From NCBI GenBank assembly GCA_017881285.1, contig JADGRD010000003.1, positions 1 to 28,758 of the forward strand: a stretch of 28,758 nucleotides of DNA, written 5' to 3'. Shown here piece by piece: positions 5,025 through 27,713 of this stretch. Made by a program: the position numbers and the translations under genes. How positions within the stretch are numbered: the first letter of the stretch is position 1; the number at the start of each line of letters is the position of its first letter. The stretch is from Pseudomonadota bacterium. Its GTDB lineage: Bacteria > Myxococcota_A > Polyangia > Fen-1088. Under the pieces are notes generated by a model. That model was not told the origin of the DNA and did no database searches. It worked only from the letters and a program-made list of their open reading frames with translations.

Positions 5025-6020
5025 CTACCACGGAATGAATCGGTAGAGCTTGGCGAACATCTCGTAGACCTCGATCCAGTTCTGCAGATCGCGCGCGGTG
5101 CGGATGTGCGCTCGCTTGTTGACCATGACCCAGCTCATGTGGGCGGCGCCGTCCTTGCACGTGGCGCAGTCGCGCGTGGCGGAGGTGCAACAGCGATGCG
5201 TGGTCTTGAGATCCGCAGACCAGCGGCGGAAGCGGATGAGCCGGCGCGGCTGCGGGTTGCGCGTGTCGTGCGTCTCGGACACCGAGGGGCATTCCTGCCA
5301 GCCGAAGCGGCGGCCGAGCATGCTGCCCGTGGTGAGCACCTCGTGGTAGTAGCGCGAGGAGATGACGGTGTCGGGGTAACGGTCGAGTAGATCGTCCAAC
5401 TCGTCGCGCACGTCGGCGAGTTGCGCGGGCGACCAGGAGAAGCCATCGGCGCCCTCGTCGTTGGAGAGGAGCTGGAAGTGGACCTTGACGCCGATGTCAC
5501 GAATGCGGCGGACCATGGTCTCCACCCGGCCCAGTTGCTGCGAGGTGATGGTGTAGAGGTAGTAGGTGTTGGGGTCGCCGGCGTAGTTTTTCGACGAGAC
5601 CGCGAAGGCGTCCTTTCCACGCAGCGACTTCTCGGTGCCGGCGTCGCCCCACAGCGAGATGCCTACCATCATCTGCGGGAAGCGGTCGCGCGGCACCTTG
5701 ATGAGTCCGTTGGTGGCGCAGAAGGTGGGCAGGCGCTTGAAGAAGGCCTCGACGCGGTCGGGGTGCAGCGTCGGCTCGCCGCCGATGAGGATGGGCAGGT
5801 TCGCCCCGCGCGCTTTCTCGGCATCGATGAAGGTTTCCCACGTGGCAACGTCGTTGGCCTCGCCCGTCAGGTGCTCATTCGAGGAGAAGAAGAAGCAGCC
5901 CTTGCAGCGCAGGTTGCACGTGTTGGTCACGTCGTAGATCGAGCTGCGGATGTTCAGGTTGCAGATCTTCTGGTAGCGGTGGTGCCAGGCGTCGTCGAGC
6001 AGCGACCGGACGGTGATCAT
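5025..6020 (-). CDS. Radical SAM protein (non-B12), paralogue A, 331 aa; start corrected to ATG 6020
   Basis: TNTCNLRCKGCFFF (CxxxCxxC) and LIGGEPTL, with C-terminal ECPS...RCCTSATRDCATC extra cysteines. ATG 6020 forms an ATGA overlap with the stop of the upstream gene (6017). Confidence 0.9.
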   Translation of the reverse strand: MITVRSLLDDAWHHRYQKICNLNIRSSIYDVTNTCNLRCKGCFFFSSNEHLTGEANDVATWETFIDAEKARGANLPILIGGEPTLHPDRVEAFFKRLPTFCATNGLIKVPRDRFPQMMVGISLWGDAGTEKSLRGKDAFAVSSKNYAGDPNTYYLYTITSQQLGRVETMVRRIRDIGVKVHFQLLSNDEGADGFSWSPAQLADVRDELDDLLDRYPDTVISSRYYHEVLTTGSMLGRRFGWQECPSVSETHDTRNPQPRRLIRFRRWSADLKTTHRCCTSATRDCATCKDGAAHMSWVMVNKRAHIRTARDLQNWIEVYEMFAKLYRFIPW

Positions 6021-7123
6021 CGGGCGGCTCCGGTCTGCCGGGCCAGCGCGGGCGCGATAGGGACGGCGCACAGATTGGGTTCCTTGGCGTAGCCTTGCAC
6101 CCATACCGCGAGGTAGGTATCGACGTAGTCGAGCCAGGCTCGGAACTGGTCCGGGCTGCCGATGTGGCGGTTCATGCGCGCGGTGACGATGGCGCTACCC
6201 GCCGCATAGTGGCGACAGTCGGCGCAGTCGGTGTCGGGCACGCAGCACGCGGCCTCGCGAATCCACGTCAGGTCCGAGCGGTACTGGCGGAAGGAGCGCC
6301 CGAGGCCGAACTGCCCCTGGTTTTGCCGCGGGTACGGGCAGGAATAGAGATCGTGCAGCGAGAGGGTATCGGTGTGCGCGGCGGCGCTGTAGGGCGAGAA
6401 GAGCACCTGCTCGGGATAGTCGGCGAGCAGCGACAGCATGGCCTGGCGGGTCTCGGCGAGCGAGGTGGGCGTGTGGCTGAGCGAGCCCTGGTAGCCGACC
6501 GTGGCTGAGAACATGTTGAAGGTGACCTTGCAGCCGTGGCGGGCCAGATTCTCGACGACCCCGCGCGCCTCGGCGATGTTCTCGCGCGTGAAGGTGTAGA
6601 CGAAAACCGCGCGCGGATCGCCGGCGTAGATCTCGATCTGGCGCTCCAGCATGCGCTTGGCGCGGCGGACGCGCTCGGAGGTCGCGTCGTTGCCCCATAC
6701 CGAGATGTGGATGCGGTAGCCGACCTCCGACGAAATGTGAATCAAGCCATTCGAGGCGATGGCGCCCAGCGGGATCTCGGCGGAGCAGGCTTCGAGCAGA
6801 TCGGGCACGAGCGCGGGTTCGGCGCCGGCCAGCACGACAAAGGTGATGCCGCGCGCCTTCTCGGCCTGGAAGAGCTTGCGCCAGGCCTCGGGGTCGAGGT
6901 TGTCCTGCGCGTTCTGTTTGTCCCCCTCGTAGTAGTAGCAGCCGTCGCAGCGCACGTTGCACCGGCGGGTCATGTCGTAGGTCGACTCGCGCAGGAAGAA
7001 GTAGCGGCGAACCTTCGCGAAACGCGCGGCGATGTCCGGCAGCTTGACGATGTCCGCGAAGGTGCCGGACGTGGCCGCGGGCGCCGTATTCGCTGGGGCC
7101 GCGGCTAGAACGTCGAGGTTCAT
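6017..7123 (-). CDS. Radical SAM protein (non-B12), paralogue B, about 368 aa (alternative start 7138)
   Basis: TRRCNVRCDGCYYY (CxxxCxxC) and VLAGAEPAL, with C-terminal SCPY...ACCVPDTDCADC extra cysteines. Shares motifs with 5025-6020 (AEKARG, ISxWG, YAGDP, DL..., WxxV). Confidence 0.9.
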   Translation of the reverse strand: MNLDVLAAAPANTAPAATSGTFADIVKLPDIAARFAKVRRYFFLRESTYDMTRRCNVRCDGCYYYEGDKQNAQDNLDPEAWRKLFQAEKARGITFVVLAGAEPALVPDLLEACSAEIPLGAIASNGLIHISSEVGYRIHISVWGNDATSERVRRAKRMLERQIEIYAGDPRAVFVYTFTRENIAEARGVVENLARHGCKVTFNMFSATVGYQGSLSHTPTSLAETRQAMLSLLADYPEQVLFSPYSAAAHTDTLSLHDLYSCPYPRQNQGQFGLGRSFRQYRSDLTWIREAACCVPDTDCADCRHYAAGSAIVTARMNRHIGSPDQFRAWLDYVDTYLAVWVQGYAKEPNLCAVPIAPALARQTGAAR

Positions 7124-7151
7124 GACCGTGTCTGGCAACCCCCGTGCGCCG

Positions 7152-7482: not shown

Positions 7483-7554
7483 GGCACGGCCCGGCAGGCT
7501 TGGCGGGGAAAATCGTCGGTATTTCGAGGTCCTGCGCCTGATTTTCGGCGTGGC

Positions 7555-7583
7555 TTGCCAAGCAGGATTGCTTGGGCTATGCG
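7555..7583 (+). promoter_or_regulatory. Candidate sigma70-like promoter with a perfect palindrome (possible operator) in its spacer
   Basis: TTGCCA (7555-7560), N17, TATGCG (7578-7583). The palindrome CCAAGCA-ggat-TGCTTGG lies at 7558-7575. Confidence 0.3.
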
Positions 7584-7621
7584 GGGTATCCCACCGAGCC
7601 GGTGAGTCCCGGGAAGGTGCC

Positions 7622-9217
7622 ATGGCCCCGCAGAAAAAGCGCATTTATCTCATCAACCCCAAGACCCCCGAGAACTTCTGGGCGATGCAGGGGACTCTCG
7701 ACATCGTGGGCCGGCACAAGACCCTGATGCCCAATGCCGCCCTGCTGACCCTGGCGGCCTTGACCCCGCCCGGGCTCGATATCGAGTACGTGTTCTGCGA
7801 CGAGAACCTCGCGCCGGCGCGCCTCGACCTGGCCTGCGACCTGGTGGCCATCACCGGCTATACGCTGCAAGCCGAGCGCATGCGGGCCTTGAGCGACGCC
7901 TTCCGCGCGCGCCATGTGCCGGTGGCGGTGGGCGGCGTCTTCGCGACCTTGGAGCCCCAGCGGGCGCGGTCCCTGGCCGACCACCTGTTCCTCGGCGAGG
8001 CGGAGCTGACCTGGCCGCGCTTCCTCGGCGACTGGCTGGCGGGGCGGGCCGGGCCGCTCTACCAGCAAGAGGAATTCATCGATCTCAAGACCAGCCCAGG
8101 GGCTGATCTGTCGTACGTGCACGCGTCCGACTACCTCTACTTCTCGGTGCAGACCTGTCGCGGCTGCCCCAATAACTGCGATTTCTGCGACGTCGTACGC
8201 CTGGTGGGCCGCAAGTTCCGCACCAAGTCCATTGCGCAGATCGTGCGCGAAGTGAAGGCCGCGCACGCCTGCGGCGCCGAGACGGTCTTCTTCTCGGACG
8301 ACAATTTTCTGGTCAATCGCGCCTTCACGGTCGATCTCTTGCGCGAGCTGGTCGCCTGGAATCGAACCTTGGGGAGGCCGCTGTCGTTTTCCACGCAGGC
8401 CACGGTGCAGATCGGCGCCGACGACGAGATCCTGAAACTGCTCGCCGACGCGCGCTTCAGCGTCATCTTCCTGGGGCTCGAAACCCTGCGCAAGGAATGT
8501 CTCGACGAGGTCAACAAGGGGCAGATGGCGTGCTTCGATCCGCGCACGGTCATTCCGCGCATCGGGAGCTACGGCATCATGCCCTTCCTCGGCATGATTG
8601 TCGGGTTTGACCATGACACCCCGGCGGTTTTCGGCGACATCGAGAGCTTCCTCGACGAAACTGGCAGCCCCATCGCCTCGATCAGCGTGCTCAATGCGCC
8701 CCGGCACACGGAGCTCTACCGGCGTATGCAGGCCGAGGGCCGCTTGCAGGAGGAATTTCGCGGCTTCTGGCACCTCACCACCAACATCGTGCCCAAGGGC
8801 ATGACGCTGCAAGAGTTGTATCAGGGGCACAAGGCGCTCTTCCAGCGGCTCTATGAACCCGAGCATTTCGAGCGCCGCATGATCAAGTGGCTGGGCAACG
8901 TGCGCTACTTGACCGACCTCTACTCGACGAAGAAGAAGACGCTCCACCGGCTCTTCCTCATCTTGCGGGTCGGGCGGCATTTCCTTTTCCGGGTGCCGCC
9001 GGTCGTGCGCCGCATGTTCTGGAATGTGGTCAAGTCCGCCTGGCGCACCAATCCGCGCCTCATCTCGCGCGCCGTCTCCGTGCTCGTGCAGTACTGGCAC
9101 TACTACGACTTCGCCCGCCGGGAAGCGTGGCAGAGGGCGGGGTTGGATGAGGGGCCACTTTATGCCTCGCCCTGCGCAGCGGGCGAGGGCGCGGCGAAGC
9201 CGCGGGGGCAGGGGTAG
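7622..9217 (+). CDS. B12-binding-domain radical SAM protein (BchE/HpnP-like superfamily, probable DUF4070-like C-terminus), 531 aa; start corrected to ATG 7622
   Basis: N-terminal IYLINPK...NAALLTLAALTP...DLVAITG...VAVGGVFAT is a cobalamin-binding-type Rossmann domain. QTCRGCPNNCDFC (CxxxCxxC), FFSDDNF, GLET, GMIVGFDHD. GGGAAGG lies upstream of the ATG. Confidence 0.92.
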   Translation: MAPQKKRIYLINPKTPENFWAMQGTLDIVGRHKTLMPNAALLTLAALTPPGLDIEYVFCDENLAPARLDLACDLVAITGYTLQAERMRALSDAFRARHVPVAVGGVFATLEPQRARSLADHLFLGEAELTWPRFLGDWLAGRAGPLYQQEEFIDLKTSPGADLSYVHASDYLYFSVQTCRGCPNNCDFCDVVRLVGRKFRTKSIAQIVREVKAAHACGAETVFFSDDNFLVNRAFTVDLLRELVAWNRTLGRPLSFSTQATVQIGADDEILKLLADARFSVIFLGLETLRKECLDEVNKGQMACFDPRTVIPRIGSYGIMPFLGMIVGFDHDTPAVFGDIESFLDETGSPIASISVLNAPRHTELYRRMQAEGRLQEEFRGFWHLTTNIVPKGMTLQELYQGHKALFQRLYEPEHFERRMIKWLGNVRYLTDLYSTKKKTLHRLFLILRVGRHFLFRVPPVVRRMFWNVVKSAWRTNPRLISRAVSVLVQYWHYYDFARREAWQRAGLDEGPLYASPCAAGEGAAKPRGQG

Positions 9218-9282: not shown

Positions 9283-9379
9283 TCAATGACCACGACCCCA
9301 TGCGCCTGGCGTGGGATAGATGGCGCTGGGGGCGCTTGCGCTTGGGCGAGGGGGCGTGCAGACTCCGCCCCGTTCGCAG

Positions 9380-10942
9380 ATGTCACGCATATCCCATGAG
9401 ATTCTCGAGCCCGTCGTGGTGGGGCCCGGCCCGCTCGATATCGATACCTTCATAGGAGTGGCCGTGCACGGCCGCAAAGTCCGTCTGGCGAAAGATGCCG
9501 CGTGGCTGCGGCGGATGGAAGCTTGCGAGGCACAGCTGGCGAAGGCGGTCGCCGACGGCACGCCCATCTATGGCGTGACCACCGGGTTTGGCAGCAACTG
9601 CGGCGCGCGGATCACGGGTGAAAGCGCGCTCGTCCTGGGCGAAGGGCTGCTGCGTTTTCACGGCTGTGGCACCGGGCCGGCGCTGCCGGTGGCGGCGGTG
9701 CGCGGGGCGATGCTCTGCCGCATCCTGTGCCTCGGACTCGGCTACTCCGGCGTGCGGGTCGCGTTGCTCCAGCGCCTGGTCGAGTTTCTCAACCATGGCA
9801 TCACGCCCGTGGTACCCGCGCAGGGCTCGGTCGGCGCGTCGGGCGATCTGACGCCCATGTCCTACGTGGCCGCGGCCCTGGTCGGCCAGCGCGAGGTGTT
9901 CTGCGCAGGCGAGCGTATGCCCGCCGCGCGCGCCATCGAACTGGCCGGGCTGCCTGCCTTCGCGTTCGCGGTGAAGGAACCCATCTCCCTCCTCAACGGG
10001 ACGCCGATCATGACCGGCGTGGCCATCATGGTCGTGGACCAGTGCCGGCGCATTCTCGCGGCGGCCACGCGCGCAACCGCCATGGCCGTGCACGCGATGG
10101 CGGGTCACGAGCACCATCTGCATCCCGTGCTCTTCGAGGCCAAGCCCTTCCCTGGGCAAGGTGCGGTGGCGGCGCAGTTACGCGCGCTGATCCGAGCCGA
10201 GGGCGACGTGCACGAGGCCGAGGTGCCCGAGTCGCTGCAAGACCCGTATTCTCTGCGCTGTGCGCCGCATGTCCTCGGCGTACTGGCCGACGCGCTGGTG
10301 TGGGTCGAGCGCTGGGTGGAAATCGAAGGGAGTGGGGCTTCCGACAATCCGCTCTTCGATCCCGAGTCGGGCGCGCCGCTCATGGGTGGCAATTTCTACG
10401 GCGGGCACATCGCCTTCGCCATGGACGCCGTGAAGGCCGCCGTGGCCTCGGTCGCGGATCTGTGCGACCGACAAGGCGCGCTGCTGGTCGACCCGCGCTT
10501 TAGTCGCGGGCTGCCGGCGCAGTTGGCCGTGCCGGTGGAAAACGGCTTTGTCCCGCGCCACGGATTCAAGGGCATGCAGATCACCCTCTCGGCGCTCACC
10601 GCCGAGGCTCTGCAGGCGTCGATGCCGGTGGCGTCGTTCTCGCGCTCGACCGAGTCGCACAACCAGGACAAGGTCAGCATGGGCACCATCGCCAGCCGCG
10701 AGGCCCTGCGCGTCTGCGAGTTGACCGCGCACGCGGTCGCGGTGCACCTGCTTGCGGCCGCACAAGCGTGCGAGCTGCGCGGTGGCTTGCCGGGGCGGCC
10801 GGCCATCGAGGCGGTGGTGCGCGCGATCCGCGGCATCAGCCCGGCGCTCGCCGACGACCGGCCCCTCGACAACGACATCGAGGCGGTCTACCAGGCCGTG
10901 GTCGGCGGGGCGCTCGGGCAGCCGGTGCCGGCGGAGGGATAG
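9380..10942 (+). CDS. MIO-dependent aromatic amino acid ammonia-lyase (HAL/PAL/TAL family), about 520 aa
   Basis: IYGVTTGFG, GSVGASGDLTPMSY (ASG forms MIO), LLNGT, QDPYSLRCAPHV, DNPLFD, GGNFYG, SHNQDKVSMG. The specificity segment is LLRFHGCGTG (Phe-His), not the Ser-His of HutH. The start is uncertain (9320 or 9380). Confidence 0.93.
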   Translation: MSRISHEILEPVVVGPGPLDIDTFIGVAVHGRKVRLAKDAAWLRRMEACEAQLAKAVADGTPIYGVTTGFGSNCGARITGESALVLGEGLLRFHGCGTGPALPVAAVRGAMLCRILCLGLGYSGVRVALLQRLVEFLNHGITPVVPAQGSVGASGDLTPMSYVAAALVGQREVFCAGERMPAARAIELAGLPAFAFAVKEPISLLNGTPIMTGVAIMVVDQCRRILAAATRATAMAVHAMAGHEHHLHPVLFEAKPFPGQGAVAAQLRALIRAEGDVHEAEVPESLQDPYSLRCAPHVLGVLADALVWVERWVEIEGSGASDNPLFDPESGAPLMGGNFYGGHIAFAMDAVKAAVASVADLCDRQGALLVDPRFSRGLPAQLAVPVENGFVPRHGFKGMQITLSALTAEALQASMPVASFSRSTESHNQDKVSMGTIASREALRVCELTAHAVAVHLLAAAQACELRGGLPGRPAIEAVVRAIRGISPALADDRPLDNDIEAVYQAVVGGALGQPVPAEG

Positions 10943-10947
10943 GCAGC

Positions 10948-11379
10948 ATGGCGGACGCACGCCGAACAGCCACGGTCGCTTTCAGCGTTCCTTTCGCCGA
11001 CGTGGACGCCATGCAAATCGTGTGGCACGCCAACTACCTCAAGTACTTCGACCTGGCTCGCGATCGGCTGTACTGCGACGCCGGGTTGGATCTCTACCAG
11101 GTGGCCGTGGACAGCGGGATGATCTTCCCCATCACGCGCACGCAGACCAAGCACGTCCGCCCCTTGCGTTTTCGCGACGAGGCCGTGTGCACGGCCACGC
11201 TGCTCGAGTTCGAGTGTCGCCTGGTCGTGGAATTCGAGATCCGCCTGGCCAAGGATGGGCAGCTTTGCGCCAAGGGCCGCACCGAGCAGGCCGCGGTACG
11301 GTTTGCCGATGGTGGCTTGGAACTGCGAATTCCGGAACCCATCCGGCGGGCGCTTCGCACTGTCGGCCATGACGGCTGA
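10948..11379 (+). CDS. Acyl-CoA/ACP thioesterase (4HBT/YbgC hotdog family), 143 aa; start corrected to ATG 10948
   Basis: VPFADVDAMQIVWHANYLKYFDLAR matches the DxDxxGxVxxxNYxxYF motif, with PLRFRD downstream. Confidence 0.9.
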   Translation: MADARRTATVAFSVPFADVDAMQIVWHANYLKYFDLARDRLYCDAGLDLYQVAVDSGMIFPITRTQTKHVRPLRFRDEAVCTATLLEFECRLVVEFEIRLAKDGQLCAKGRTEQAAVRFADGGLELRIPEPIRRALRTVGHDG

Positions 11380-13114
11380 CGTCTCCGTGGCTGGGGATCT
11401 GCGCCGGGCGCTCGCCGATGGCTGCGCCGCCGTCGGCGCCTGGGCCGAGGTTCTCGACCGCATCAACGTCTTCCCGGTTCCCGACGGAGACACCGGCCGC
11501 AACCTGGTGTTGAGCCTGGCGCCTCTGCGCGATGTCGGCGCCAGCGACCATGCCATTGCGGAGCGGTTGCTGCTGTCGGCTCGGGGGAATTCGGGCAATA
11601 TCGCTTGCGCCTTCGTGCGCGCGTTGCTGGATGGGGTCGCGGGCGCAAGCCTGGCCGCCCGCTGCGTGGTCGGAGCCGCCAGCGCGCGCAAGGCGGTCGC
11701 GGTTCCGCAGCCGGGGACCATGCTGACAGTGCTGGATGCGCTGGCGGAGGCGGCGAGGGCAGGGTTGGCGGCGAAGGACGTACCCTCGCTGCTCGGGCGC
11801 CTGTCGACCGTGGTGCGGGAAACCACCGGGCAGCTGGAGTCGTTGCGCAAGGCCGCGGTGGTGGACAGCGGCGCGCTCGGCATGCTGGTGTTTCTCGACG
11901 GGGCTCTGCGTGGCTACCACGGGCTACCTGAGCCTGGCGAGAGCCTGGCCGCTACTTTTCGTTCGCTGGTGCGCTTCGATCGTTCGCGAGCCGCCGGGCA
12001 TGAGGAGCACGGCTTCTGCGTTGACGCTGTCTTGCGCGTACCCGCGGGTGGCCGGCCGCCCGACGAGCAGTTGGCCCGCATCGGCAGCGAGGTTGTGGCC
12101 CTGCGCGAGGGTCCGCTGTGGAAGATCCACCTGCACGCCGGCGACGCGCAGGCGGCGCGCGCGGCCCTGGGTGAAGTCGGCGAAGTGCTCGCCTGGTCGT
12201 GGGACGATTTGCACGAGCAGATGTCGACAAGCCCGCCCGTCGCGGCCGAGGGAGAAGTGCATATCGTGACCGACGGCGCGGCCTCGCTCGCGCGCTCAGC
12301 GGCCGAAGCCTTGGGCGTGAGCCTGCTCGACAGTCTCGTCAATTTCGGCGGGCGATCACTGCCCGAGACGCGTCTCGACCCCGACGACGTTTATCGGGCC
12401 ATGCGCCGGGGCGTGCGCGTGTCGACGGCGCAGGCGTCAACCCACGAGCGCCACATGTGCTACGGGCGGCTTGTCGCGCAGTGGCAGCACGTGCTCTACC
12501 TGTGCGTGGGCTCGGTCTACACCGGCAACCACGCCGTGGCCACCGCCTGGCGAGCGTCGCATAAGTCGGGCGAGCGTCTGATCGTGCTCGACAGCGGCGC
12601 CGCCTCCGGCCGCCTGGCCGTGGTGGTGCGAGCAACGGCAATCGCCGCTCGGAGTGGCGTCGACATTGGGGACCTGACGGCCTTCGCCACCGCTGCCCTG
12701 TCGCGCGCCGAGGAGTACATCTTCCCCGATCGCCTGGAGTACCTGGCGCGCGGCGGGCGTTTGTCGAAGGCGGGCGCGTGGTTCGGCGACGCCCTGGGCC
12801 TAGCCCCCGTGGTTTCGCCCTTTCCCGACGGTGCCCGCAAGGTCGCGCTGCTGCGCAAGCCGGAAGATCGCCTGACCTTCGCTTGTCAGCAGGTGAAACG
12901 CGCCTTCGCCACCGGCTCGCGCCGCGGCTACCTCCTCGCCGAATACACCGACAATCGCGCCTGGGTGGAGGGCGTCCTGCTGCCGCGATTGCGCGCGGCC
13001 GCGCCCGAGGCCGAGCTCGCGGCGGGCCCGCTGTCCCTCACCACCGGCGCCCACACCGGCCCGGGAGCCTGGGCGGTGGCGATGCTGCCCGATTCGCCCG
13101 CGCAAGGTGTGTGA
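11369..13114 (+). CDS. DAK2 (FakA-like) / DegV (FakB-like) fusion, putative fatty acid kinase, 581 aa; start corrected to ATG 11369
   Basis: DAK2 motifs INVFPVPDGDTGRNL, ARGNSG, TMLTV and VVDSGA; middle domain GFCVD...KIHLH; DegV motifs IVTDGAASL, VSTAQAS, DSGAASG, LARGGRL and GAHTGPG. Confidence 0.88.
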   Translation: MTADVSVAGDLRRALADGCAAVGAWAEVLDRINVFPVPDGDTGRNLVLSLAPLRDVGASDHAIAERLLLSARGNSGNIACAFVRALLDGVAGASLAARCVVGAASARKAVAVPQPGTMLTVLDALAEAARAGLAAKDVPSLLGRLSTVVRETTGQLESLRKAAVVDSGALGMLVFLDGALRGYHGLPEPGESLAATFRSLVRFDRSRAAGHEEHGFCVDAVLRVPAGGRPPDEQLARIGSEVVALREGPLWKIHLHAGDAQAARAALGEVGEVLAWSWDDLHEQMSTSPPVAAEGEVHIVTDGAASLARSAAEALGVSLLDSLVNFGGRSLPETRLDPDDVYRAMRRGVRVSTAQASTHERHMCYGRLVAQWQHVLYLCVGSVYTGNHAVATAWRASHKSGERLIVLDSGAASGRLAVVVRATAIAARSGVDIGDLTAFATAALSRAEEYIFPDRLEYLARGGRLSKAGAWFGDALGLAPVVSPFPDGARKVALLRKPEDRLTFACQQVKRAFATGSRRGYLLAEYTDNRAWVEGVLLPRLRAAAPEAELAAGPLSLTTGAHTGPGAWAVAMLPDSPAQGV

Positions 13115-13276: not shown

Positions 13277-13804
13277 TCATACCCTGGCAGGCCTTGGTCG
13301 TGGTCGGCGCTTGCCGCTGCGCGGTCTTGGTCGCCGGGGCGGGACGGCAGGCGCGACGCGCAGATCGAACCGGATCTCGTGCGGATAGAGGATGCGCAGT
13401 GTCCGGATGCCGCGGGTACGGATGGCCGCGCCGCGAACCGCCGCGACGATCTGGCCAACGACGCCAGCGTTGGCCCACTTGCCTTGCGAGGTGAAGTCCT
13501 CGTGCACGGCAAGGTGCAAGACAAGTAAACAGGCACGCTTGTCCCTGGCGAACATGGCCACGCCGACCAGAGACGCGGGCGGCTCGGTTTCGTCGAAGGC
13601 GTACAAGGTTTGCAGCATGCCGAAGGCATCCACGCGAAAGCGCAGACAACCATCTTCCTCGACGATGGATGGCACCCCGTAGCGGTGAACGGAATCGAGC
13701 AGAGGCGCGGTGACGGAACTCTGCTCCGGATTGAAGAACACGATTCGCTCGAGCTCGTCGCGAAACGAAGCGGCAAGCACGGAAGAGAGTCGAATCTTAC
13801 GCAT
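13277..13804 (-). CDS. Hypothetical protein with degenerate GNAT-like motif, 175 aa; start corrected to ATG 13804
   Basis: GAAGGTG precedes the ATG. The globular-looking sequence includes VLHLAVHEDFTSQGKWANAGVVGQIVAAVRGAAIRTRGIRTLRILY, which resembles GNAT motif A/B; it ends in a Pro/Arg-rich tail. Confidence 0.65.
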   Translation of the reverse strand: MRKIRLSSVLAASFRDELERIVFFNPEQSSVTAPLLDSVHRYGVPSIVEEDGCLRFRVDAFGMLQTLYAFDETEPPASLVGVAMFARDKRACLLVLHLAVHEDFTSQGKWANAGVVGQIVAAVRGAAIRTRGIRTLRILYPHEIRFDLRVAPAVPPRRPRPRSGKRRPRPRPARV

Positions 13805-14129
13805 TGCATCACCTTCTTTGCCAGGACGTCGCGGGGAACTGCCTTCCGGTTTGCCGACCGAGGAACCGTCGGTCACTCGGAACGAAGTGTGCCCCATGAC
13901 CTCGGGACGAGGCTAGCTTACTCCAAGTTGGCGTGCTTGCCCCGCTGGAGCGCAATCCGGCTTTCGCCTGGGTGATGGCGCGAGCGAACAGAGCGTGCTC
14001 TCGCTGCGCATGGGTCCGGCAGCAGACTGGACCTGCAAAGCGGCAGTTCGAGCCTTTCTGGCCAGCCTTCCCGCACTCGCGCAAGGGGCGTGACAGGGGC
14101 ACCTTCTCCCTGGCATTCTACCTCTCCAC

Positions 14130-15365
14130 ATGTGTAAAGGACACCGCGTCGTCGTCACGGGAGTCGGCCTGCGCTCGCCGATAGGGCACACGCTCACGGC
14201 GCTGCGCGATGGCCTTCTCGCGGGCAGGAGCGGCGTGCGCGCCATGCCGGGGTGGGAGTCTCTCGACGGGCTGCGCACGCGCGTGGGCGCGCCCTGCGAC
14301 GGCATCGACACCAACGACATCCCGCGCAAATTCGCCCGCACCATGGGTCGGGTGGCGGTGCTGGCCGCACTCTCGGTGCGTGACGCGGTCGCGGACGCGG
14401 GGCTGCCGGCCGAGGTGGTGGCGTCCCCAAACTGCGGCGTGGCCTACGGCTCGACCGTGGGAAGCACGGCCTCGCAGGAGGACTTCCTGCGTCCCATCCT
14501 CAACGACACATCCATCCGCGGGCTTCTGGCCTCCACCTACTTGCAGTTCATGAGCCATACCTGCGCCGCCAACATCGCGCTCATGTTCGGGTGCAAGGGG
14601 CCGGTCATCGCCTCGTGCACGGCCTGCACCTCGGGCTCGCAGGGCGTCGGTATCGCCTACGAGCAGGTGCGCTTTGGCCGCGTGCCCATCTGCCTGGGCG
14701 GCGGCGCCGAGGAGCTGCACATCCTGCACGCCGGCATCTTCGACATCATGCGCGCCACCTCGGCGGGCTATGCCGACACGCCCGAGCGCACGCCGCGGCC
14801 GTTCGACCGCAAGCGCGACGGTCTGGTGGTGGGCGAGGGCGCCGCCTGCCTGGTGATGGAAGAGTACGAACGCGCGCGGAAGCGCGGCGCGAACATCTAT
14901 GCCGAGATCATCGGCTACGGCCAGGGCTGCAACGGCACCCACCCGACCAATTCCGATCCCGGCGGGATCTGCATCGCCATCAACGCGGCCCTGCGCGACG
15001 CCAAGCTGGCGCCGTCGGACATCCAGCACGTCAACGCGCACGCCACCGGCACCGACGTGGGCGACGCGGCCGAGGCCGTGGCCATCCACCGCATCTTCGG
15101 CGCCAAGGTGCCGGTCAGCGCGCTCAAGGGCTACTTGAGCCACACCCTGGGCGCCAGCGGCGCCATCGAGTCGGCCGCCACGATCGTGATGATGCGCGAC
15201 GGCTTCATGGCCGTGTCGAAAAACCTCGACGAGCCCGATCCCGCGCTGCCGCCCATCGACCATGTGCTGGGTAGCGCGCGGCAGGCGCCCATTCGCATCG
15301 CCATGAACAACAACTTCGCGTTCGGCGGCATCAACACCTCGCTCGTCTTTCGTGCGCTTTCGTGA
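14130..15365 (+). CDS. fabF: Beta-ketoacyl-ACP synthase (FabF/FabB family, ApeR-like), 411 aa
   Basis: RVVVTGVGLRSPIG, YLQFMSHTCAAN, CTACTSGSQGVG (Cys), VNAHATGT (His), KGYLSHTLGASG (His), RPFDRKRDGLVVGEGA, NNFAFGGINTSL. Family-level symbol. Confidence 0.93.
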   Translation: MCKGHRVVVTGVGLRSPIGHTLTALRDGLLAGRSGVRAMPGWESLDGLRTRVGAPCDGIDTNDIPRKFARTMGRVAVLAALSVRDAVADAGLPAEVVASPNCGVAYGSTVGSTASQEDFLRPILNDTSIRGLLASTYLQFMSHTCAANIALMFGCKGPVIASCTACTSGSQGVGIAYEQVRFGRVPICLGGGAEELHILHAGIFDIMRATSAGYADTPERTPRPFDRKRDGLVVGEGAACLVMEEYERARKRGANIYAEIIGYGQGCNGTHPTNSDPGGICIAINAALRDAKLAPSDIQHVNAHATGTDVGDAAEAVAIHRIFGAKVPVSALKGYLSHTLGASGAIESAATIVMMRDGFMAVSKNLDEPDPALPPIDHVLGSARQAPIRIAMNNNFAFGGINTSLVFRALS

Positions 15366-16159
15366 TGGATGAATCCGCGCCCTCGTGGCCAGAGCTGCGT
15401 GCGCGCTTCGCGGGCTGCGGGTCGGCCTTTGCGTTCGTCATCCCGGTCTTCAACCATGCGCGCAACGTGGGCCAGGTGGTCGCGGCCGCCGCGGAGAGCG
15501 GCGCGCCGGTCATCGTCGTCGACGACGGCTCGACGGACGGCAGCGCGGAGGCGGTCGCGGCCGTACCAGGCGCGACGGTGGTTCGCCATGAGAGGAATCT
15601 GGGCAAGGGCGCGGCCATTCTCACCGGGCTGGCGGCGGCGGCGACGCCCCTGATCGCTGCGCGATTCGCCATCACCGTGGACGCCGATGGGCAGCACCGT
15701 CCGGACGAGGCGCGCCGTTTGCTCGCGGCTCTGTGGCCGGGCACGGCCGCGCGACCCCAGGTTGCTCTGGTGCTGGGCGCGCGCACGGGTATGGACCAGG
15801 CCATGGTGCCCTGGTCGAGCCGCATGGGCCGCGGGTTTTCCGGATTCTGGGTGTGGGCCGCGGGGGGGCCGCGCGTCGCGGACTCGCAGTCCGGCTTCCG
15901 CGTGTACCCGGTGGCCGAAACCCTGGCGCTGCCCACCCGTGCCCGGCGCTTCGAGTTCGAAGTCGAGGTGCTGGTGCACGCGCGGTGGGCCGGCATCCCG
16001 ATTCGGGAGGTGCCGGTGTCCGTGGCCTACGAACCACCAGGCGGCCGGGTGTCGCATTTCCGCCCATGGCGCGACTTCGGGCGCAACTCGGCCACGTTCA
16101 CGCGGCTCATCGTTTCCAGATTCGTGCCGCGCGCGAGGGGAACCCGGCATGGCACGTGA
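15362..16159 (+). CDS. Glycosyltransferase family 2 (DPM-synthase-like), about 265 aa
   Basis: VIPVFNHA, VVDDGSTDG, NLGKGAA, TVDADGQH (DxD), DSQSGFRVYP, FEFEVEVL. GTGA overlap with the KS stop. Confidence 0.92.
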   Translation: MMDESAPSWPELRARFAGCGSAFAFVIPVFNHARNVGQVVAAAAESGAPVIVVDDGSTDGSAEAVAAVPGATVVRHERNLGKGAAILTGLAAAATPLIAARFAITVDADGQHRPDEARRLLAALWPGTAARPQVALVLGARTGMDQAMVPWSSRMGRGFSGFWVWAAGGPRVADSQSGFRVYPVAETLALPTRARRFEFEVEVLVHARWAGIPIREVPVSVAYEPPGGRVSHFRPWRDFGRNSATFTRLIVSRFVPRARGTRHGT

Positions 16160-19100
16160 ATCGACCATCCGCTGGCGGGTCTTGCTTATCGCTTGCGCCG
16201 CGACGGGGCTGCTCGCCTGGGTCGGCCAGCGGCGGCTGCGCATCGACACAGACGTCACCTCGGCGGTGCCCACGGGGAATCAAGCATTCGAGAGCGCCCG
16301 GCAGGTTCTGGCGCGGCACTCTTCGCTCGACAAGGTCGTCATCAACCTGTCCTTGCGCGACGGACGCGCCGATCCCAGCGCGCTTCTCGCCGCGGGGGAC
16401 GCGTTGGTGGCCGCGCTCGATCGGTCCGGGCTCTTTTCCTCCGTGGGTACCGCGGCTGCCGCCTCCGGCCTGGCCTCGCTCTACACCAACCTGCCCCAGC
16501 GACTGCCGCTGCTCTTCTCGGAGGAGGAATTGCAGCGGCAGGTATCGCCACGGCTGGAACCTGCCGCTATCGGCATGCGCTTGCAGAGCCTCGCCGCCGA
16601 CGCCTCGGACATGGCCGGTATCGGGGCCGCCGCGCGCGTGGCCGAGGATCCGCTCGGGCTCGGCGACCTGGTGCTCGCGCGCCTGGGCGATCTCGTGCCC
16701 ACGCAACAGGCGCGCATCGAGAAGGGCCACATTCTCGACGCCGACGGGAAGAACCTGCTCATCATGGCCACGCCGCGCGAGGGCATGCGCGACACGCGCT
16801 CCTGCCACGCCATCGACGATCTGCTACGCGCGGCGGTCGCTCGCTTCGCAACCAGGCAGCCGGGTGAGCCAGGGCACGGCGTTCTGCTCACGCCGGTCGG
16901 CGGGTACCGCGCCACCATCGACAACGAGACGCTGGTCACCAGCGACGCGAACCTCGCCATGCTGGCCTCGACCGTCGGCATTGCCCTCTTGCTCTTGCTG
17001 TGCTTTCCCCGGCCGTGGCTGGGTGTCTTCGCCTTGCTCCCGGCCGTCGCCGGCGGCTGTCTGGCGCTCTTCGCCTACACCTTGATCGAGAGCGACATCT
17101 CGGCGCTGGCCCTCGGATTTGGCGGCGCGCTGATCTCGATCACCGTGGACCAGGGCGCGGTGTACCTGCTCTTCGTGGATCGCAAGACCAAGACCGCCGG
17201 GCACCGGGCCGCGCACGAGGTCTTCTCGATCGGCTCGCTGTCTACCATCGTCAACATCGGTTCGTTTCTGGCGTTGCGGCTCACGGGCTTCCGCGTGCTC
17301 GGACAGATCGGCCTCTTCGCCGCTCTTGGCATCCTGTTCTCGTACCTCTTCGTGCACCTGGTCTTCCCGCACATCTTCCCCTCGGTGCCCGCGGCCACGC
17401 GCGCGCCGTGGGTGCCGGTGGACGAGTTCTTGCGGCGGATCACCGTGGGCCGAGGCTGGCGCGCGTTGGCCGTGGCAGCCGTGCTCTTCGTCGTGGCCCT
17501 GGCCTTCGCACGGCCCAAGTTCGTCGTGGATCTGGCGGCCATGAACACGGTGCGGGCCGAGACCGCACGCGACGAGGCGCGGGTAAAGGCGGTGTGGGGC
17601 GACATCTTTTCTCGCCTGTATGTTCTCGTCGACGCCAAGGACGAGGTGGACTTCCAGCGCAAGTCCGACGCCTGGCTGGCGATGCTGGAGCGGGAGAGGA
17701 GCGACCAGGTTCTGAGCCGGGGCTTCTCGCCGGCCATGCTTAGCCCGGGCGTGTCGCGCGCGGGGAACAACGCGCGAGCTTGGGCTCTCTTTTGGACCAG
17801 CGAGCGGATCGCGGCCGTGCGCGCGGCCCTGCGCCAGGGCGCCGAGGCGGCCGGTTTCGCGCCGGACGCCTTCGCGCCGTTCCTGGCGCGCTTGTCGGCG
17901 CCGGCGCCAACCCATACTCCGATGTCCGCTGGCGAGCGAGCCCTCTACGGTATCGAGCCGGGCCGCGACGGCAAGGGCGTGGTCTGGCTGGGCAGCATGT
18001 CGCCGGGACCGCGCTACGCGTCCGAGGCATTCGCGGCCGAGGCGCAGCAGGCCGGGCTCTTCGTCTTCGACGGCGGCAATTTCTCCCAGACCCTGGCCGG
18101 CTTCCTGGCCAAGTCGTTCCGGCTGATGTTCGTGGTGGTGGTCTGCTTCGTGACAATTTCCGTCTTTCTCTTCTTTCTCGACCTGCGCGTTGCCGCCATC
18201 GCGCTCGCGCCGCTGACCTTCTCCTTCGTGATGACCATCGGGACGCTGCACCTCCTGGGGCGGTCCATCGACATCGTGGGCCTCATCCTCTCCGTGCTCA
18301 TCTTCGGCATGGGCGTCGACTACTCGTTCTCCTTCGTGCGCGTCTACCAGCGCTGCCTCGACGAGCACCACCCCTCGCACGGCCCCGTGCGCACCAGCAT
18401 TTTCCTGGCCGCCAGCGCGACCATGGTCGGCATGATCACCATGGCCTTCGCTAAGCACAACGTGACCCGCAGCGCGGGCATCATGGCCAGCCTGGCCATC
18501 GGCTACTGCGCCGTCGGGGCGTATGTCATCCTGCCGCCGCTCCTGCGCCGCCTGTTCGCGCCGCGCCCGTTGCCACGGCCCGATCGCGAACATCCCGAGC
18601 GCTGGGTGAACGAACGCTTCCGCCGGCTCGGGGCCTATCCGCGCTACTTCGCTCGTGGCAAGATGCGACTGGACCCGATGTTCGCGCGGCTGTCGGACTT
18701 TCTCCCCGACGCAGGCACCGTGCTCGACATCGGCTGCGGCTTTGGCGTGGCGGCCGCCTGGGCCCTGGCGCGCTCGGCGGAGGTGCGCGTGGTCGCGGTC
18801 GAGCCCGACGAGGATCGCGCCGGCGTTGCCCGCTTCGTGCTGGGCGAGCGCGGCGAGGTGCAGGTGGGGGCGGCACCCGACCTATTGCCCGAGGTGAACG
18901 CGTCCGCCGGGCTCTGTCTCGATGTGATCCACCACCTTGACGACGATGGGCTGGCCAAGACCCTGGCCCACGTGCGCCACTGCCTGCGCCCCGGCGGAAA
19001 ATTCGTCCTGCGCGCGACGGTGCCGGGAGCCGGCCGGACGCCCTTCTACCGCTGGATCGAGACGCGGCGGCTGGCCCTGTCCGGGCTTCGGCCCCACTAC

Positions 19101-19241
19101 CGGCAACGCGAAGCCGTCGTCCGCGCGCTGGAAAACGCGGGACTCTCCCCCAACCTCGTGGAGCTGACGGCCCCGGGCCGCGAAGAGACGTGGTTCATTG
19201 CCCTGGCCACGCCGGCCGAGGGCGACGGGGAAGCATCGTGA
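16149..19241 (+). CDS. MMPL/RND-family exporter fused to a C-terminal class I SAM-dependent methyltransferase, 1030 aa; start corrected to ATG 16149
   Basis: Two blocks of multiple hydrophobic helices with MMPL motifs (LISITVDQG, GMGVDYS) separated by large soluble loops. The C-terminal ~210 aa have YFARGKMRLDP, VLDIGCGFG (SAM motif I) and LDVIHHL. Confidence 0.9.
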   Translation: MARESTIRWRVLLIACAATGLLAWVGQRRLRIDTDVTSAVPTGNQAFESARQVLARHSSLDKVVINLSLRDGRADPSALLAAGDALVAALDRSGLFSSVGTAAAASGLASLYTNLPQRLPLLFSEEELQRQVSPRLEPAAIGMRLQSLAADASDMAGIGAAARVAEDPLGLGDLVLARLGDLVPTQQARIEKGHILDADGKNLLIMATPREGMRDTRSCHAIDDLLRAAVARFATRQPGEPGHGVLLTPVGGYRATIDNETLVTSDANLAMLASTVGIALLLLLCFPRPWLGVFALLPAVAGGCLALFAYTLIESDISALALGFGGALISITVDQGAVYLLFVDRKTKTAGHRAAHEVFSIGSLSTIVNIGSFLALRLTGFRVLGQIGLFAALGILFSYLFVHLVFPHIFPSVPAATRAPWVPVDEFLRRITVGRGWRALAVAAVLFVVALAFARPKFVVDLAAMNTVRAETARDEARVKAVWGDIFSRLYVLVDAKDEVDFQRKSDAWLAMLERERSDQVLSRGFSPAMLSPGVSRAGNNARAWALFWTSERIAAVRAALRQGAEAAGFAPDAFAPFLARLSAPAPTHTPMSAGERALYGIEPGRDGKGVVWLGSMSPGPRYASEAFAAEAQQAGLFVFDGGNFSQTLAGFLAKSFRLMFVVVVCFVTISVFLFFLDLRVAAIALAPLTFSFVMTIGTLHLLGRSIDIVGLILSVLIFGMGVDYSFSFVRVYQRCLDEHHPSHGPVRTSIFLAASATMVGMITMAFAKHNVTRSAGIMASLAIGYCAVGAYVILPPLLRRLFAPRPLPRPDREHPERWVNERFRRLGAYPRYFARGKMRLDPMFARLSDFLPDAGTVLDIGCGFGVAAAWALARSAEVRVVAVEPDEDRAGVARFVLGERGEVQVGAAPDLLPEVNASAGLCLDVIHHLDDDGLAKTLAHVRHCLRPGGKFVLRATVPGAGRTPFYRWIETRRLALSGLRPHYRQREAVVRALENAGLSPNLVELTAPGREETWFIALATPAEGDGEAS

Positions 19242-20110
19242 TCGAATGGCTCTACAGATTCCTGGCTCGGCTTTCGCGCTTCGTGGGCCTGTGGCTCATG
19301 CGGGTCACGGCGGCCATCGTCGCCAGCGGATACTTCGTCCTCTTGCCGAGGCGGCGAGCCCACAGCGTCCGTTTCTACCGCGCGCTCTTCCCCGAGCGAT
19401 CGGCCATGCACGCGCTCGGCAGCGCCTGGCGGCAATACCAGGACTTCGCGCGGCTCTACTGCGAGCGTCTGGAAATCGAGCGCCGGCCCGACGTGCGCAT
19501 CGAAAGCGATAGCGAATGGAAGTTGGCCGAAACGAGAGCAGCCGGGCGCGGCGCCATCCTGGTCATGTCCCACTTTGGCCGATGGGAGATTGGTGCGCGC
19601 CTGCTCGCTCGGCGAAGGGAAGGGCTGACCCTGGTCATGGGCGGATTGGCGGATGGCGGCGCGCGGGCGGGCGTCGACGCGGATCTGCGCTCGGCCGGCC
19701 TCGACGTGGTGACCGTGCCGGAAGGGCAGGGGCAAGCCTTCGACATCTTGCAGGCGTTGCAGATCCTGCGCGCGGGCGGCATCGTTTCGCTCGCCGCCGA
19801 TCGCGCCCACGGCGATGCGCGCATGCTACGCTTGCCATTTCTCGGGCACGTGGTGTCCGTTGCGGCGGCGCCCTTCGCCCTGGCCCTGGTCAGCGGCGCG
19901 CCTTTGCTGGTGGTCTTCGCCGTGAAGATCGCTCCGCGCGCCTACCGATTCACCTGCGAGGGCCCGGTCACCTTGACCGCGGCCAATCGCGGCGACCGCC
20001 AGAAGGTCATGGAGCAAGCGGCTTCGGGCTACCTGCAACGGCTGTACGAGATGGCGCGCGCCTATCCCGAGCAGTGGCAGACCTTCGGCGAGTTCTTGCA
20101 GCGAGGCTGA
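19238..20110 (+). CDS. Lysophospholipid acyltransferase (LpxL/HtrB-like), 290 aa; start GTG 19238
   Basis: ILVMSHFGRWE (HxGxWE), SLAADR, LPFLG, YPEQW. GTGA overlap with the MMPL stop. Confidence 0.9.
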   Translation: MIEWLYRFLARLSRFVGLWLMRVTAAIVASGYFVLLPRRRAHSVRFYRALFPERSAMHALGSAWRQYQDFARLYCERLEIERRPDVRIESDSEWKLAETRAAGRGAILVMSHFGRWEIGARLLARRREGLTLVMGGLADGGARAGVDADLRSAGLDVVTVPEGQGQAFDILQALQILRAGGIVSLAADRAHGDARMLRLPFLGHVVSVAAAPFALALVSGAPLLVVFAVKIAPRAYRFTCEGPVTLTAANRGDRQKVMEQAASGYLQRLYEMARAYPEQWQTFGEFLQRG

Positions 20111-24267: not shown

Positions 24268-24725
24268 GGTTGTTCTCCGGGCAGGGGAACGCGGTCGGGG
24301 CGGAAGGCCTGGATCGCTCCGGTCAGCCATAGCATGCCGGAGTCATCCTTGACCTCGCCTTCGAAGGCCTGATAGTTCGTGGCGCCGTGGGAAGTGCGCA
24401 CCGAGCAGAGCAGCCGCGTTCCCACGGGCACGCTGGGCCGGGCAGGAGTGGCGGTGTGTATGCCAACCAGGAGGCCGCCGATGCGGGCATCCTTCTCATG
24501 CCGCTCTTTCCAGCCTTGCAGGACCGCGGCGGATTGTGCGATGAGCTCGACGAGCACCAGGGCGCGCACGTGGCCGCCCTCCGCCGTGGGCCACGCCTCG
24601 CGGACGACCGCGCCGATCTCTATGGAAGTCTCGTCGACCCGGAGGATGTCCTCGACCAGGCGCATGGGCAAGCGATGGGGAATCAGCCTCTCGATGTCGC
24701 TTGGGGAAGCGGTGGGTTCGCTCAT
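24264..24725 (-). CDS. Hotdog-fold 3-hydroxyacyl-ACP dehydratase subunit (ApeP/FabZ-like), 153 aa; true start ATG 24725
   Basis: LIPHRLPMRLVE and ELIAQSAA, GLLVGI. ATGA overlaps at both ends. The upstream part of track ORF 24264-25853 is a shadow frame. Confidence 0.85.
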   Translation of the reverse strand: MSEPTASPSDIERLIPHRLPMRLVEDILRVDETSIEIGAVVREAWPTAEGGHVRALVLVELIAQSAAVLQGWKERHEKDARIGGLLVGIHTATPARPSVPVGTRLLCSVRTSHGATNYQAFEGEVKDDSGMLWLTGAIQAFRPDRVPLPGEQP

Positions 24726-25561
24726 TCTCGCTCCTTGGCGGCAGTGATCCAGGCAGGCGGCGGGGCGCCAGCGGCAAGCGGCGACATGGCCAGGCCGATG
24801 ACCGCGTCGCAGACCGCGCCTTCTTCGTCGATGAACCAGAGGTTGCAGAGAAGACTCCGTGGTTCGACGCGTGTCGGGACGACGATGCAGCGGCGCTCGC
24901 CAGCCGGGGTCGGCTTCGTCAACACCCGGGCCAGGAAGCCGGTCGGGTACGCCACGATCCCGGCGTACCGTTGTCCCCACACGCAGGCCAGGTGCATGGC
25001 CGCGTCGAACAGGTAGGGGCAGCTCGCCAGCGGGGGGGGGTGTCGCGGTGGCTCGGGGGAACGCACGCGGGCGACGCCGCCGCTCGGCCCCAGGCGAACG
25101 GTCCCGCGCAGATTGCAGTAGCGCGGCCCGAAGGGAATCAGCTCGCGATAGACGCGCTCGGCGGGCAGCTCGAAGGCGCAGGCGAGATCCGCCGGCGGAC
25201 GCGGTGGCGGTGCGATCGGGGCCCCCAGCGTAACTCCGGCATGCACACGCGAGCGGCGCATGTCCCCCACCAGAGCGATCCGCGAGGTCAAGGTCGCACG
25301 CAGGGCGCCGTCGCTTGCTTCCACGGCAATCTCGAAGGTGCAGCGATCGATTTCGTCGGCCGGCAGAAAGCGAGGGAAGCTCACGTCGGTCATGGCCAGG
25401 GGCAGGGGCGGTCGACCGGCCCAACCCTCTTGCCCGGCCACGGTTCGGACCAAGAGCTCGAGCAGCTCGACGGCGGGCACGGTGGCTTTGCCGCCGATGA
25501 CGTGGTCCGCCAGGTCCGGTAACTCGGGCAAGGCGACGGACCAGGCGGCCAGCACGGGCAT
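24722..25561 (-). CDS. Stand-alone type I PKS-like dehydratase (double hotdog), 279 aa; start ATG 25561
   Basis: LADHVIGGKATVPA matches HxxxGxxxxP; YLFDAAMHL matches the DxxxH/Q catalytic motif; FGPRY. TGATG overlap with the upstream thioesterase. Confidence 0.8.
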   Translation of the reverse strand: MPVLAAWSVALPELPDLADHVIGGKATVPAVELLELLVRTVAGQEGWAGRPPLPLAMTDVSFPRFLPADEIDRCTFEIAVEASDGALRATLTSRIALVGDMRRSRVHAGVTLGAPIAPPPRPPADLACAFELPAERVYRELIPFGPRYCNLRGTVRLGPSGGVARVRSPEPPRHPPPLASCPYLFDAAMHLACVWGQRYAGIVAYPTGFLARVLTKPTPAGERRCIVVPTRVEPRSLLCNLWFIDEEGAVCDAVIGLAMSPLAAGAPPPAWITAAKERE

Positions 25562-26040
25562 CACTGGGGAAAGCGCTGGAAGATCCCGACGGTGATCGGA
25601 TCGACCGCGACCGGCCGGCCCTTGCGGTTGGTCGCGCAGTGGCGCGTGAACCCGCGGCACAGCACGCTCCCGTCTTCCGCGTTCGTGATGATGTAGTCGA
25701 AGTCGACCCGCACGGCCGCCAGCTCGCGGAAGCGCGTATGGACGAAGATGGGCGCGTCGTAGTCGATGGGCCGGAAGAAATCGAGGCCGAGCTGGAAGAT
25801 GGGGTAGACGTGGCCATCCGCCTCGACCTGCCGGAGCGGGAAGCCCGCGTCACGCAGCAGGGTCGCGCGCCCGAGCTCGAAGAAGCGGAAGTAGTTGCCG
25901 TGGTAGACGACGCCCGTGCGATCCGTGTCGGCGAAGAGGATGCGATGGGAGACGCGGTGCCAGACCTGCCCGGAAACCTGGTCGCGCACGTAGCGCTGGT
26001 CGGATTCGTAAGGGACGGGCTTGAATTCAGTCGCGCGCAT
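25561..26040 (-). CDS. Acyl-CoA/ACP thioesterase (YbgC/FadM hotdog family), 159 aa
   Basis: RILFADTDRTGVVYHGNYFRFFELGR; FFRPIDYD. Confidence 0.92.
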   Translation of the reverse strand: MRATEFKPVPYESDQRYVRDQVSGQVWHRVSHRILFADTDRTGVVYHGNYFRFFELGRATLLRDAGFPLRQVEADGHVYPIFQLGLDFFRPIDYDAPIFVHTRFRELAAVRVDFDYIITNAEDGSVLCRGFTRHCATNRKGRPVAVDPITVGIFQRFPQ

Positions 26041-27452: not shown

Positions 27453-27713
27453 ATGGATCACAGCACGGCCTATAGACTCATCGTCGAATATCTTTCGCAA
27501 CGTTTCGGCGTCCCCCTCGACAAGATCAAGCCCGAGTCCAAGATGTTCGACGACCTCGGGCTCGACAGCATCGATGCTCTCGACATGCTGGCCCTGCTCG
27601 ACAAGCAGTACCGGGTCAAGGTCAACGAGGAGCAGGCCCGGCGCATCCGCACCGTCGAGGATGCCGTGCAGTACGTGCTGGCGAACCTGCCCGCGAACGC
27701 GTCGCCGCCCTGA
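27453..27713 (+). CDS. Acyl carrier protein (ACP 3), 86 aa
   Basis: MFDDLGLDSIDALDML contains the DS motif; RIRTVEDAV. Confidence 0.94.
   Translation: MDHSTAYRLIVEYLSQRFGVPLDKIKPESKMFDDLGLDSIDALDMLALLDKQYRVKVNEEQARRIRTVEDAVQYVLANLPANASPP

Follow-up and report, generated by a model that had tools for sequence, protein, structure and literature searches.

The window analysed here, that is the whole stretch of 28,758 nucleotides, is the entire contig C91 of a genome (G000) that is 74% complete. A single uninterrupted open reading frame of 581 aa at 11369-13114 (+) codes for a predicted single-chain fatty-acid kinase, a fusion of Dak2 and DegV domains, whose nearest named relatives belong to uncultured Myxococcales/Polyangia metagenome-assembled genomes (MAGs). 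All the motifs quoted in an earlier reading of this DNA, made from its letters (the sequence-only reading), are present in it. The start is backed by homologues of 581 aa with 97% identity; a longer start at 11255 was rejected, because it would overlap the thioesterase gene and homologues have about 581 aa.

The overlap with a thioesterase gene that the sequence-only reading had pointed out is there and amounts to 11 nt. The gene, TE1 (10948-11379, +), codes for a hot-dog thioesterase of the 4HBT family with 143 aa and lies in the ApeK position. It is preceded by a MIO aromatic amino-acid ammonia-lyase (HAL; 9320-10942, +, start maybe 9380), which would supply the aryl starter, and by a B12-dependent radical SAM enzyme (Pfam; 7550-9217, +, start probably near 7622), the first gene of the same run. 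On the opposite strand lie a pair of radical SAM paralogues (Pfam/NCBIfam; 5025-7138, -), whose family was found only in kinase-carrying genomes, and a phytoene-desaturase-like oxidoreductase cut at the contig end (1-1239, -), which no single listed ORF spans.

Between the kinase gene and KS there is a gene of about 170 aa without a Pfam match (13277-13897, -, start likely near 13804). It was seen in only one of the 79 loci compared (L007, 83%), and close relatives have KS directly after the kinase. Further downstream are a GT2 glycosyltransferase (15362-16159, +), the glycosyltransferase half of ApeJ, an MMPL exporter with a SAM methyltransferase domain fused to its C-terminus (16149-19241, +) and a lipid-A-type acyltransferase (19190-20110, +), the acyltransferase half of ApeJ and the likely acceptor of the ACP-bound aryl chain. 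A PKS-type dehydratase (24722-25660, -), which in many relatives, not here, has a variant PlsY next after it, lies beside TE2, a YbgC/FadM-type thioesterase (25561-26040, -) and possible alternative source of free acid. The last gene, an ApeI-like dehydratase fused to an ApeH-like AMP ligase (27713-28758, +), is cut by the contig end. In Desulfobacterota the module around TE2 has the order rSAM-rSAM-KS-KS-TE2-DH-PlsY.

In terms of APE-lipid equivalents we identified KS/CLF, ACP, ApeH, ApeI/P, ApeQ, ApeJ, ApeK, ApeL and ApeM. The window, truncated on either side, contains no ApeD/PlsC; the genus relatives G301, G340 and G349 have it at the cluster edge. Judged by its genes, the cluster is APE-lipid-like with radical-SAM additions. 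A promoter and terminator scan gave nothing above chance.

Domains, fold and active-site residues

The HMM scan that the sequence-only reading had proposed found both Dak2 (residues 36-179) and DegV (residues 297-574) with Pfam, and the NCBIfam DegV model TIGR00762 is above its cut-off (125.9 vs 99.7). FakA-like_M scores 21.7 bits at residues 215-286, which is below the Pfam cut-off of 24.9, and FakA_C (Pfam: PF13684) has no Pfam match in the 581-aa protein. The NCBIfam models FakA (NF038248; 64 vs 975) and YloV (147 vs 396) are both below cut-off. The resulting layout is Dak2/FakA_N at about 9-190, FakA_M with C217, H254 and H256, and a complete DegV/FakB at about 295-576. This protein is the only Dak2 match and also the only DegV match in the genome, in which no separate FakB was found.

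In the AlphaFold model (pLDDT 87.9, pTM 0.89) residues 1-188 resemble FakA_N with a Z score of 22.8 to 7RM7, compared with only 17.0 for DhaL. Residues 290-579 align to complete FakB/DegV structures over 265-284 residues with Z 28-32 and a rmsd of about 2.5 Å, and to DhaK with a Z of about 16. FakA_C is itself a reduced DegV fold without the tunnel inserts (S. aureus FakA paper), and therefore the modelled protein is best described as FakA_N and FakA_M joined to a true FakB, with the complete FakB in place of FakA_C. A fragment of S. aureus FakA consisting of N and M alone is able to phosphorylate the acid on FakB, which makes the single-chain design plausible. When the Dak2-M and DegV halves were predicted as two chains, docking reached 0.89 against 0.50 for the best control, with at least 75% of the contacts agreeing between runs and a partner pLDDT of at least 88. 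The mark applied is passed by 58 out of 80 solved pairs and 2 out of 110 mismatched pairs, and passing it may here stem from the likeness to FakA_N/FakA_C and DhaL/DhaK. The predicted interface takes in residues 356-372, adjoining T353.

Using the residue roles given for FakB and FakA in PMC10848957 and PMC8892158, N33, D39, D41, T42, N74 and D166 align to the ADP/Mg residues of S. aureus FakA, and C217, H254 and H256 to the Cys-His-His set of its middle domain. Across 112 sequences the Cys-His-His residues are invariant and the nucleotide residues invariant or nearly so, in agreement with the earlier statement that the kinase motifs and the middle domain are intact. The FakB carboxylate set Thr61, Ser93, His264/266 and Arg170 corresponds to T353, T385, H562 and R464, the sole change being Ser93 to Thr, and the equivalent of Arg202/Arg205 is R496. 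The GGR and GAHTGPG motifs of the DegV domain are kept, as had been noted. From the conserved residues and the fold we strongly infer that the protein acts as an ATP-dependent acyl kinase.

DhaL has the Dak2 fold as well, and opposite H226, which in S. suis FakA_M is the fourth Zn ligand, the alignment places R205, within a linker that aligns badly and shows no conserved His. Both points would suit a carrier without activity, or a kinase that acts on a different small molecule, for example dihydroxyacetone. We consider this extremely improbable, since FakA_N beats DhaL (Z about 22 vs 17), FakB beats DhaK (about 30 vs 16), the catalytic residues are invariant in the 112 sequences and the gene is linked to PlsY.

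Distribution of the fusion and linkage to PlsY

FakA and FakB had been presented in the sequence-only reading as separate proteins only, which is not the case: Dak2-DegV fusions are widespread, occur in Listeria and Enterococcus and go back to Erni et al. 2006, according to the passage citing that work in bioRxiv 10.1101/2021.02.16.431466. The profile search for fusions yielded three tiers. In a FastTree tree with midpoint root, from which fragments were excluded, 68 core and sister sequences split from 44 general fusions with a support of 100; with this method and rooting we claim neither a donor nor a direction. None of the distant fusions was found in a biosynthetic cluster among the contexts seen (four informative examples). 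In Listeria monocytogenes (L168:4564-7516) a general-type fusion lies beside a photolyase in a DUF2177-DegV-DUF1295 operon, which is known from heliorhodopsin neighbourhoods. On these sequences the Dak2-DegV architecture is old and general and the cluster-bound branch specific.

In 77 out of the 79 GTDB loci of the branch (40-82% identity) cluster genes are found nearby; of the two exceptions, one lies on a contig of just 3 kb, and in the other (G307) about 15 kb separate the kinase from the cluster. The branch is present in 5 of 301 genomes of the host phylum, in 10 of 13 genomes of the genus and in none of 24 from other genera of the family. A housekeeping role for this branch, which the sequence-only reading had named as a way for its proposal to fail, was rejected on this distribution. 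In one genus relative (G340/G303; L009, L157) two kinase copies lie 7 kb apart (C17:30364-32080 and 37240-38952), the first of them split into two frames at residue 408-410. Two loci of the host phylum (L086 in G077 and L087 in G092) have a run of DegV, a Dak2 plus middle-domain protein and PlsY, apparently a split form of the system.

Among 301 Desulfobacterota genomes, 27 carry the fusion. The radical-SAM family of the cluster is found in 24 of these 27 and in none of the 274 non-carriers, so that the kinase is kept in 24 out of 24 genomes with this family; related genomes are not independent and such tallies overstate the significance. Three carriers have neither the rSAM pair nor TE2 with the queries used, in assemblies that may be incomplete, and the substrate therefore cannot be tied to one module. 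With the same three carriers, the rSAM/TE2 module is a doubtful candidate for an obligate source of the acid. Cultured carriers are Desulfobulbus oralis and Desulfogranum mediterraneum, whose orthologues are WP_104937252.1 and WP_028584018.1, respectively. The compact cluster of the human oral D. oralis (L170-L172) includes kinase, rSAM pair and TE2, with HAL, TE1 and variant PlsY absent from the region mapped.

The substrate of PlsY is acyl-phosphate. In 12 of 37 genomes the distance between a PlsY gene and the fusion is at most 30 kb, and the fusion-linked copies form one divergent branch (support 100/98), separate from the housekeeping PlsY. The variant is divergent, as it scores 111 on TIGR00023, below the cut-off of 137, and keeps the glycerol-3-phosphate pocket, with Ser35, Asn37, Arg45, Lys104, Ser142, His177 and Asn180 invariant in our alignment (A3). 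His92 to Asn was set aside as a sign of a special substrate, because the housekeeping PlsY of this genome also has no His there (Gln). The variant was found in 18 of the 27 Desulfobacterota carriers, in 10 of those 18 within about 21 kb of the kinase, and in none of the 274 other genomes; in the host phylum it is present in three of the four other carriers and in no non-carrier. Where it is distant from the kinase, it usually stands last in the other half of the cluster, in the order KS-KS-TE2-DH-PlsY. In the case of sister and distant fusions, plsY adjoins the fusion gene or is coupled to it in translation. In G319 (L145:16097-17500) the variant makes up the C-terminus of a frame of 467 aa and in G460 (C50:15713-16249) it is inside a 632-codon open frame, both possible fusions.

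Among Desulfobacterota, the variant PlsY is kept in 9 of 9 PlsX-less carriers vs 9 of 18 with PlsX (Fisher p 0.012), and among all 74 carriers in 38 of 43 vs 12 of 31; in both tallies kin are not independent and MAGs are incomplete. In the Smithella/Syntrophales-type genomes (G308, G316, G334, G336) and in G042 no plsX was found and the cluster PlsY is the only PlsY. The same genomes have a PlsB-like gene under the TIGR03703 cut-off, and such a below-cut-off gene was present in 5 of 5 PlsX-less hosts examined. Judging from gene content, no source of acyl-phosphate other than the fusion is apparent for the single PlsY of these five hosts. Outside any cluster, the sister branch has plsY-kinase operons in G374 (C6:59121-61528), G383 (C56), G390 (C135) and L166; no PlsX was found in the first three, which have no PlsY besides that of the operon and might make lysophosphatidic acid without PlsX.

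The genome studied here has housekeeping PlsX and PlsY on other contigs and retains the kinase; neither PlsB nor variant PlsY was found in it (74% complete). Variant PlsY is present in 1 of 13 genomes of the genus, most of which have PlsX and a housekeeping PlsY and keep the kinase. That the kinase is kept where PlsX and PlsY exist indicates that housekeeping supply is no substitute for it; we infer that the acceptor is replaceable by a host enzyme and the kinase is not.

Source of the acid and the proposed route

TE1 is immediately upstream of the kinase in 67 of the 79 loci, and HAL is present in 54. The best plasmid matches of TE1 are Ralstonia APE thioesterases located after HAL, so the HAL-TE order is inherited. 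The sequence-only reading had taken the overlapping thioesterase as the enzyme that frees the acid. Against this, TE1 occupies the ApeK slot after HAL, ApeK gave no hydrolysis of ACP-APE in vitro (PMC8253772), and TE1 is absent from 6 of the 27 Desulfobacterota carriers, all six of which have TE2. As an obligate partner of the kinase, TE1 was rejected with its 21 of 27 carriers. Three carriers have TE1 and neither TE2 nor the rSAM pair; every carrier has one cluster thioesterase, and neither is obligate.

The same reading had described the fatty-acid-binding motifs as altered and the pocket as one that may fit a bulky or aryl acid. The carboxylate binders T353, T385, R464 and H562 are kept, and the TAQ motif also occurs in 1PZX, a solved lipid-binding DegV protein. 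What stands is that neighbouring positions are true clade signatures: A356 in 53 of 58 core sequences (Pro in 42 of 44 others), an aromatic Y/F384 in 58 of 58, T385 in 57 of 58 (Ser in 44 of 44 others) and N387, to which G414/R415, E449 and W568 can be added as further core-specific positions. Since the DegV domain contains 25 of the 36 clade-diagnostic positions, it appears to have been retuned in the branch.

One way to read this is a remodelled pocket in which the kinase activates an aryl(-polyene) acid released by TE1. The common HAL-TE1-kinase order would fit, as would the several fixed changes near the tunnel mouth, among them the aromatic residue 384 and the invariant G414. We consider this very improbable, because the HAL-TE pair is an inherited APE layout and because ApeJ passes the aryl chain of the solved APE lipid from ACP on to the sugar (bioRxiv 2020.12.19.423268). 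With both ApeJ halves and an ApeH-like ligase in the window, the aryl chain needs no kinase; the ligase, present from 27713, also led us to reject the kinase as a replacement of the starter ligase. Moreover, the D. oralis cluster has the kinase without HAL or TE1 in the mapped region, Ser to Thr and Leu to Tyr are changes toward larger residues, and A356 sits at the predicted Dak2-M/DegV interface. Nothing in the substitutions seems to point to room for an aryl ring.

The reading we favour, with modest confidence, is a dedicated acyl kinase that activates a non-aryl acid made by the cluster and feeds PlsY for the glycerol anchor of the cluster lipid. The non-aryl chain would be built on a cluster ACP and released by one of the two cluster thioesterases. 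The DegV domain would hold the free acid via T353, T385, H562 and R464 against Dak2, and the tethered Dak2 would very probably transfer the gamma-phosphate of ATP to give acyl-phosphate. From this the variant or a host PlsY would probably acylate sn-1 of glycerol-3-phosphate, after which PlsC, GT2 and the lipid-A-type acyltransferase may complete an APE-lipid-like glycolipid, by analogy, for export by MMPL/LolA. The transfer to lipid put forward by the sequence-only reading is backed by a co-occurring dedicated PlsY and by a precedent in E. faecalis (PMC12288450). In this genus, where the variant PlsY is mostly absent, host PlsY (or PlsX) would have to accept the product.

Several points, however, run counter to the favoured reading: the genome has no variant PlsY, the window has no cluster PlsC and neither thioesterase is obligate. 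The glycerol of the one solved APE lipid bears two acids, a conjugated one attached via ApeD and a saturated one, the latter an ordinary C14/C16 chain. The same chemistry could serve an ordinary substrate, a common saturated acid being activated to give the cluster's own lysophosphatidic acid for the anchor. The myristoyl or palmitoyl group on the glycerol of the X. doucetiae APE lipid fits this, as do the canonical carboxylate residues and the need of PlsX-less hosts for an acyl-phosphate source for any PlsY. We nevertheless regard it as unlikely, because hosts with PlsB or PlsX/PlsY already make ordinary lysophosphatidic acid and yet the kinase is in all 24 rSAM-family genomes, and because of the diagnostic positions concentrated in DegV.

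Alternatively, the kinase might stand off the main path and recapture acids from proofreading thioesterases or lipid turnover. TesE-Fak recycling is known in E. faecalis, ApeK has been suggested to proofread, and TE1 so often adjoins the kinase; the private PlsY within a biosynthetic module suggests a forward step instead, and with retention of the kinase near-universal we find salvage or editing rather improbable.

A bolder version of the favoured route is held tentatively, as somewhat doubtful: the kinase and variant PlsY would have adapted to each other as a private acyl-phosphate route, by which an unusual cluster acid reaches sn-1 of an undescribed glycolipid of anaerobes. Jointly with this, and no less tentatively, the acid may be radical-SAM-modified, polyunsaturated or hydroxylated near the carboxyl.

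FakAB is viewed as a Gram-positive route for using outside fat (PMC10146087). If the proposal is true, a cluster-bound one-chain kinase with its own PlsY means that diderm anaerobes use acyl-phosphate chemistry for specialised lipids too. On the bolder version, no earlier acyl-phosphate step would be known from the biosynthesis of such lipids, nor an earlier single-chain Fak with a specificity other than the standard one. The proposal predicts that the product of the radical-SAM cluster is located at glycerol sn-1. DegV domains co-purify with bound acid, which would offer a shortcut to that product, and, as the S. aureus and S. suis papers are at odds over the way FakA gains access to the acid, a single chain without FakA_C could help to decide the matter. 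The contributions of this study are the nested pattern of co-occurrence, the dependence on PlsX, the arguments against TE1 and against an aryl substrate, and the cultured carriers.

Comparison with known systems

In the literature searched, from which subscription papers were mostly outside coverage, we found neither the cluster-bound kinase branch with its PlsY partner nor, among the top-ranked papers, DegV/Dak2 together with APE, ladderane or flexirubin. By sequence, the protein is a member of the known Dak2-DegV fusion group. The general fusions, including that of Listeria, have the same three domains and about 590-620 aa, and some of them abut plsY. They differ in their 21-30% identity, separate branch, canonical QP and SGT motifs and, as far as the few available contexts go, a location away from biosynthetic clusters.

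With the APE clusters apeA-R (E. coli CFT073, X. doucetiae; HAL form in Ralstonia) the cluster shares KS/CLF, ACPs, ApeH/I-like proteins, the thioesterase in ApeK position, GT2, the lipid-A-type acyltransferase, MMPL, LolA and, in genus relatives of the host, PlsC. Radical SAM and B12 enzymes, a desaturase-like gene, a second thioesterase, the kinase and often PlsY are added here. Described APE clusters have no acyl-phosphate step, so the kinase step lies outside them, as the sequence-only reading had said. FAS-II clusters of the ladderane type, described from Kuenenia and Desulfotalea (PMC2649909), are alike by gene type in deltaproteobacteria, with several FabF paralogues besides genes for radical SAM and phytoene-desaturase-like proteins; the paper makes no mention of DegV, a kinase or a thioesterase.

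Like FakA and FakB of S. aureus and S. suis (7W7H, 7RM7, 4X9X, 5WOO), the protein has a Dak2 ATP domain, a Cys-His-His middle and a DegV Thr/Ser/His/Arg site. Unlike them, it is one chain with a complete FakB instead of the FakA_C docking domain, and belongs to a diderm host with no separate FakB in the genome and to a biosynthetic cluster instead of the scavenging of host fat. It thus appears to resemble FakAB in its working and, lacking FakA_C, is not a FakA. The closest functional parallel to the proposed route is TesE-FakAB-PlsY of Enterococcus faecalis (PMC12288450), where a thioesterase frees the acid from acyl-ACP, Fak phosphorylates it and PlsY acylates sn-1; in contrast to the cluster described here, that system is housekeeping, consists of separate proteins and handles ordinary fatty acids.
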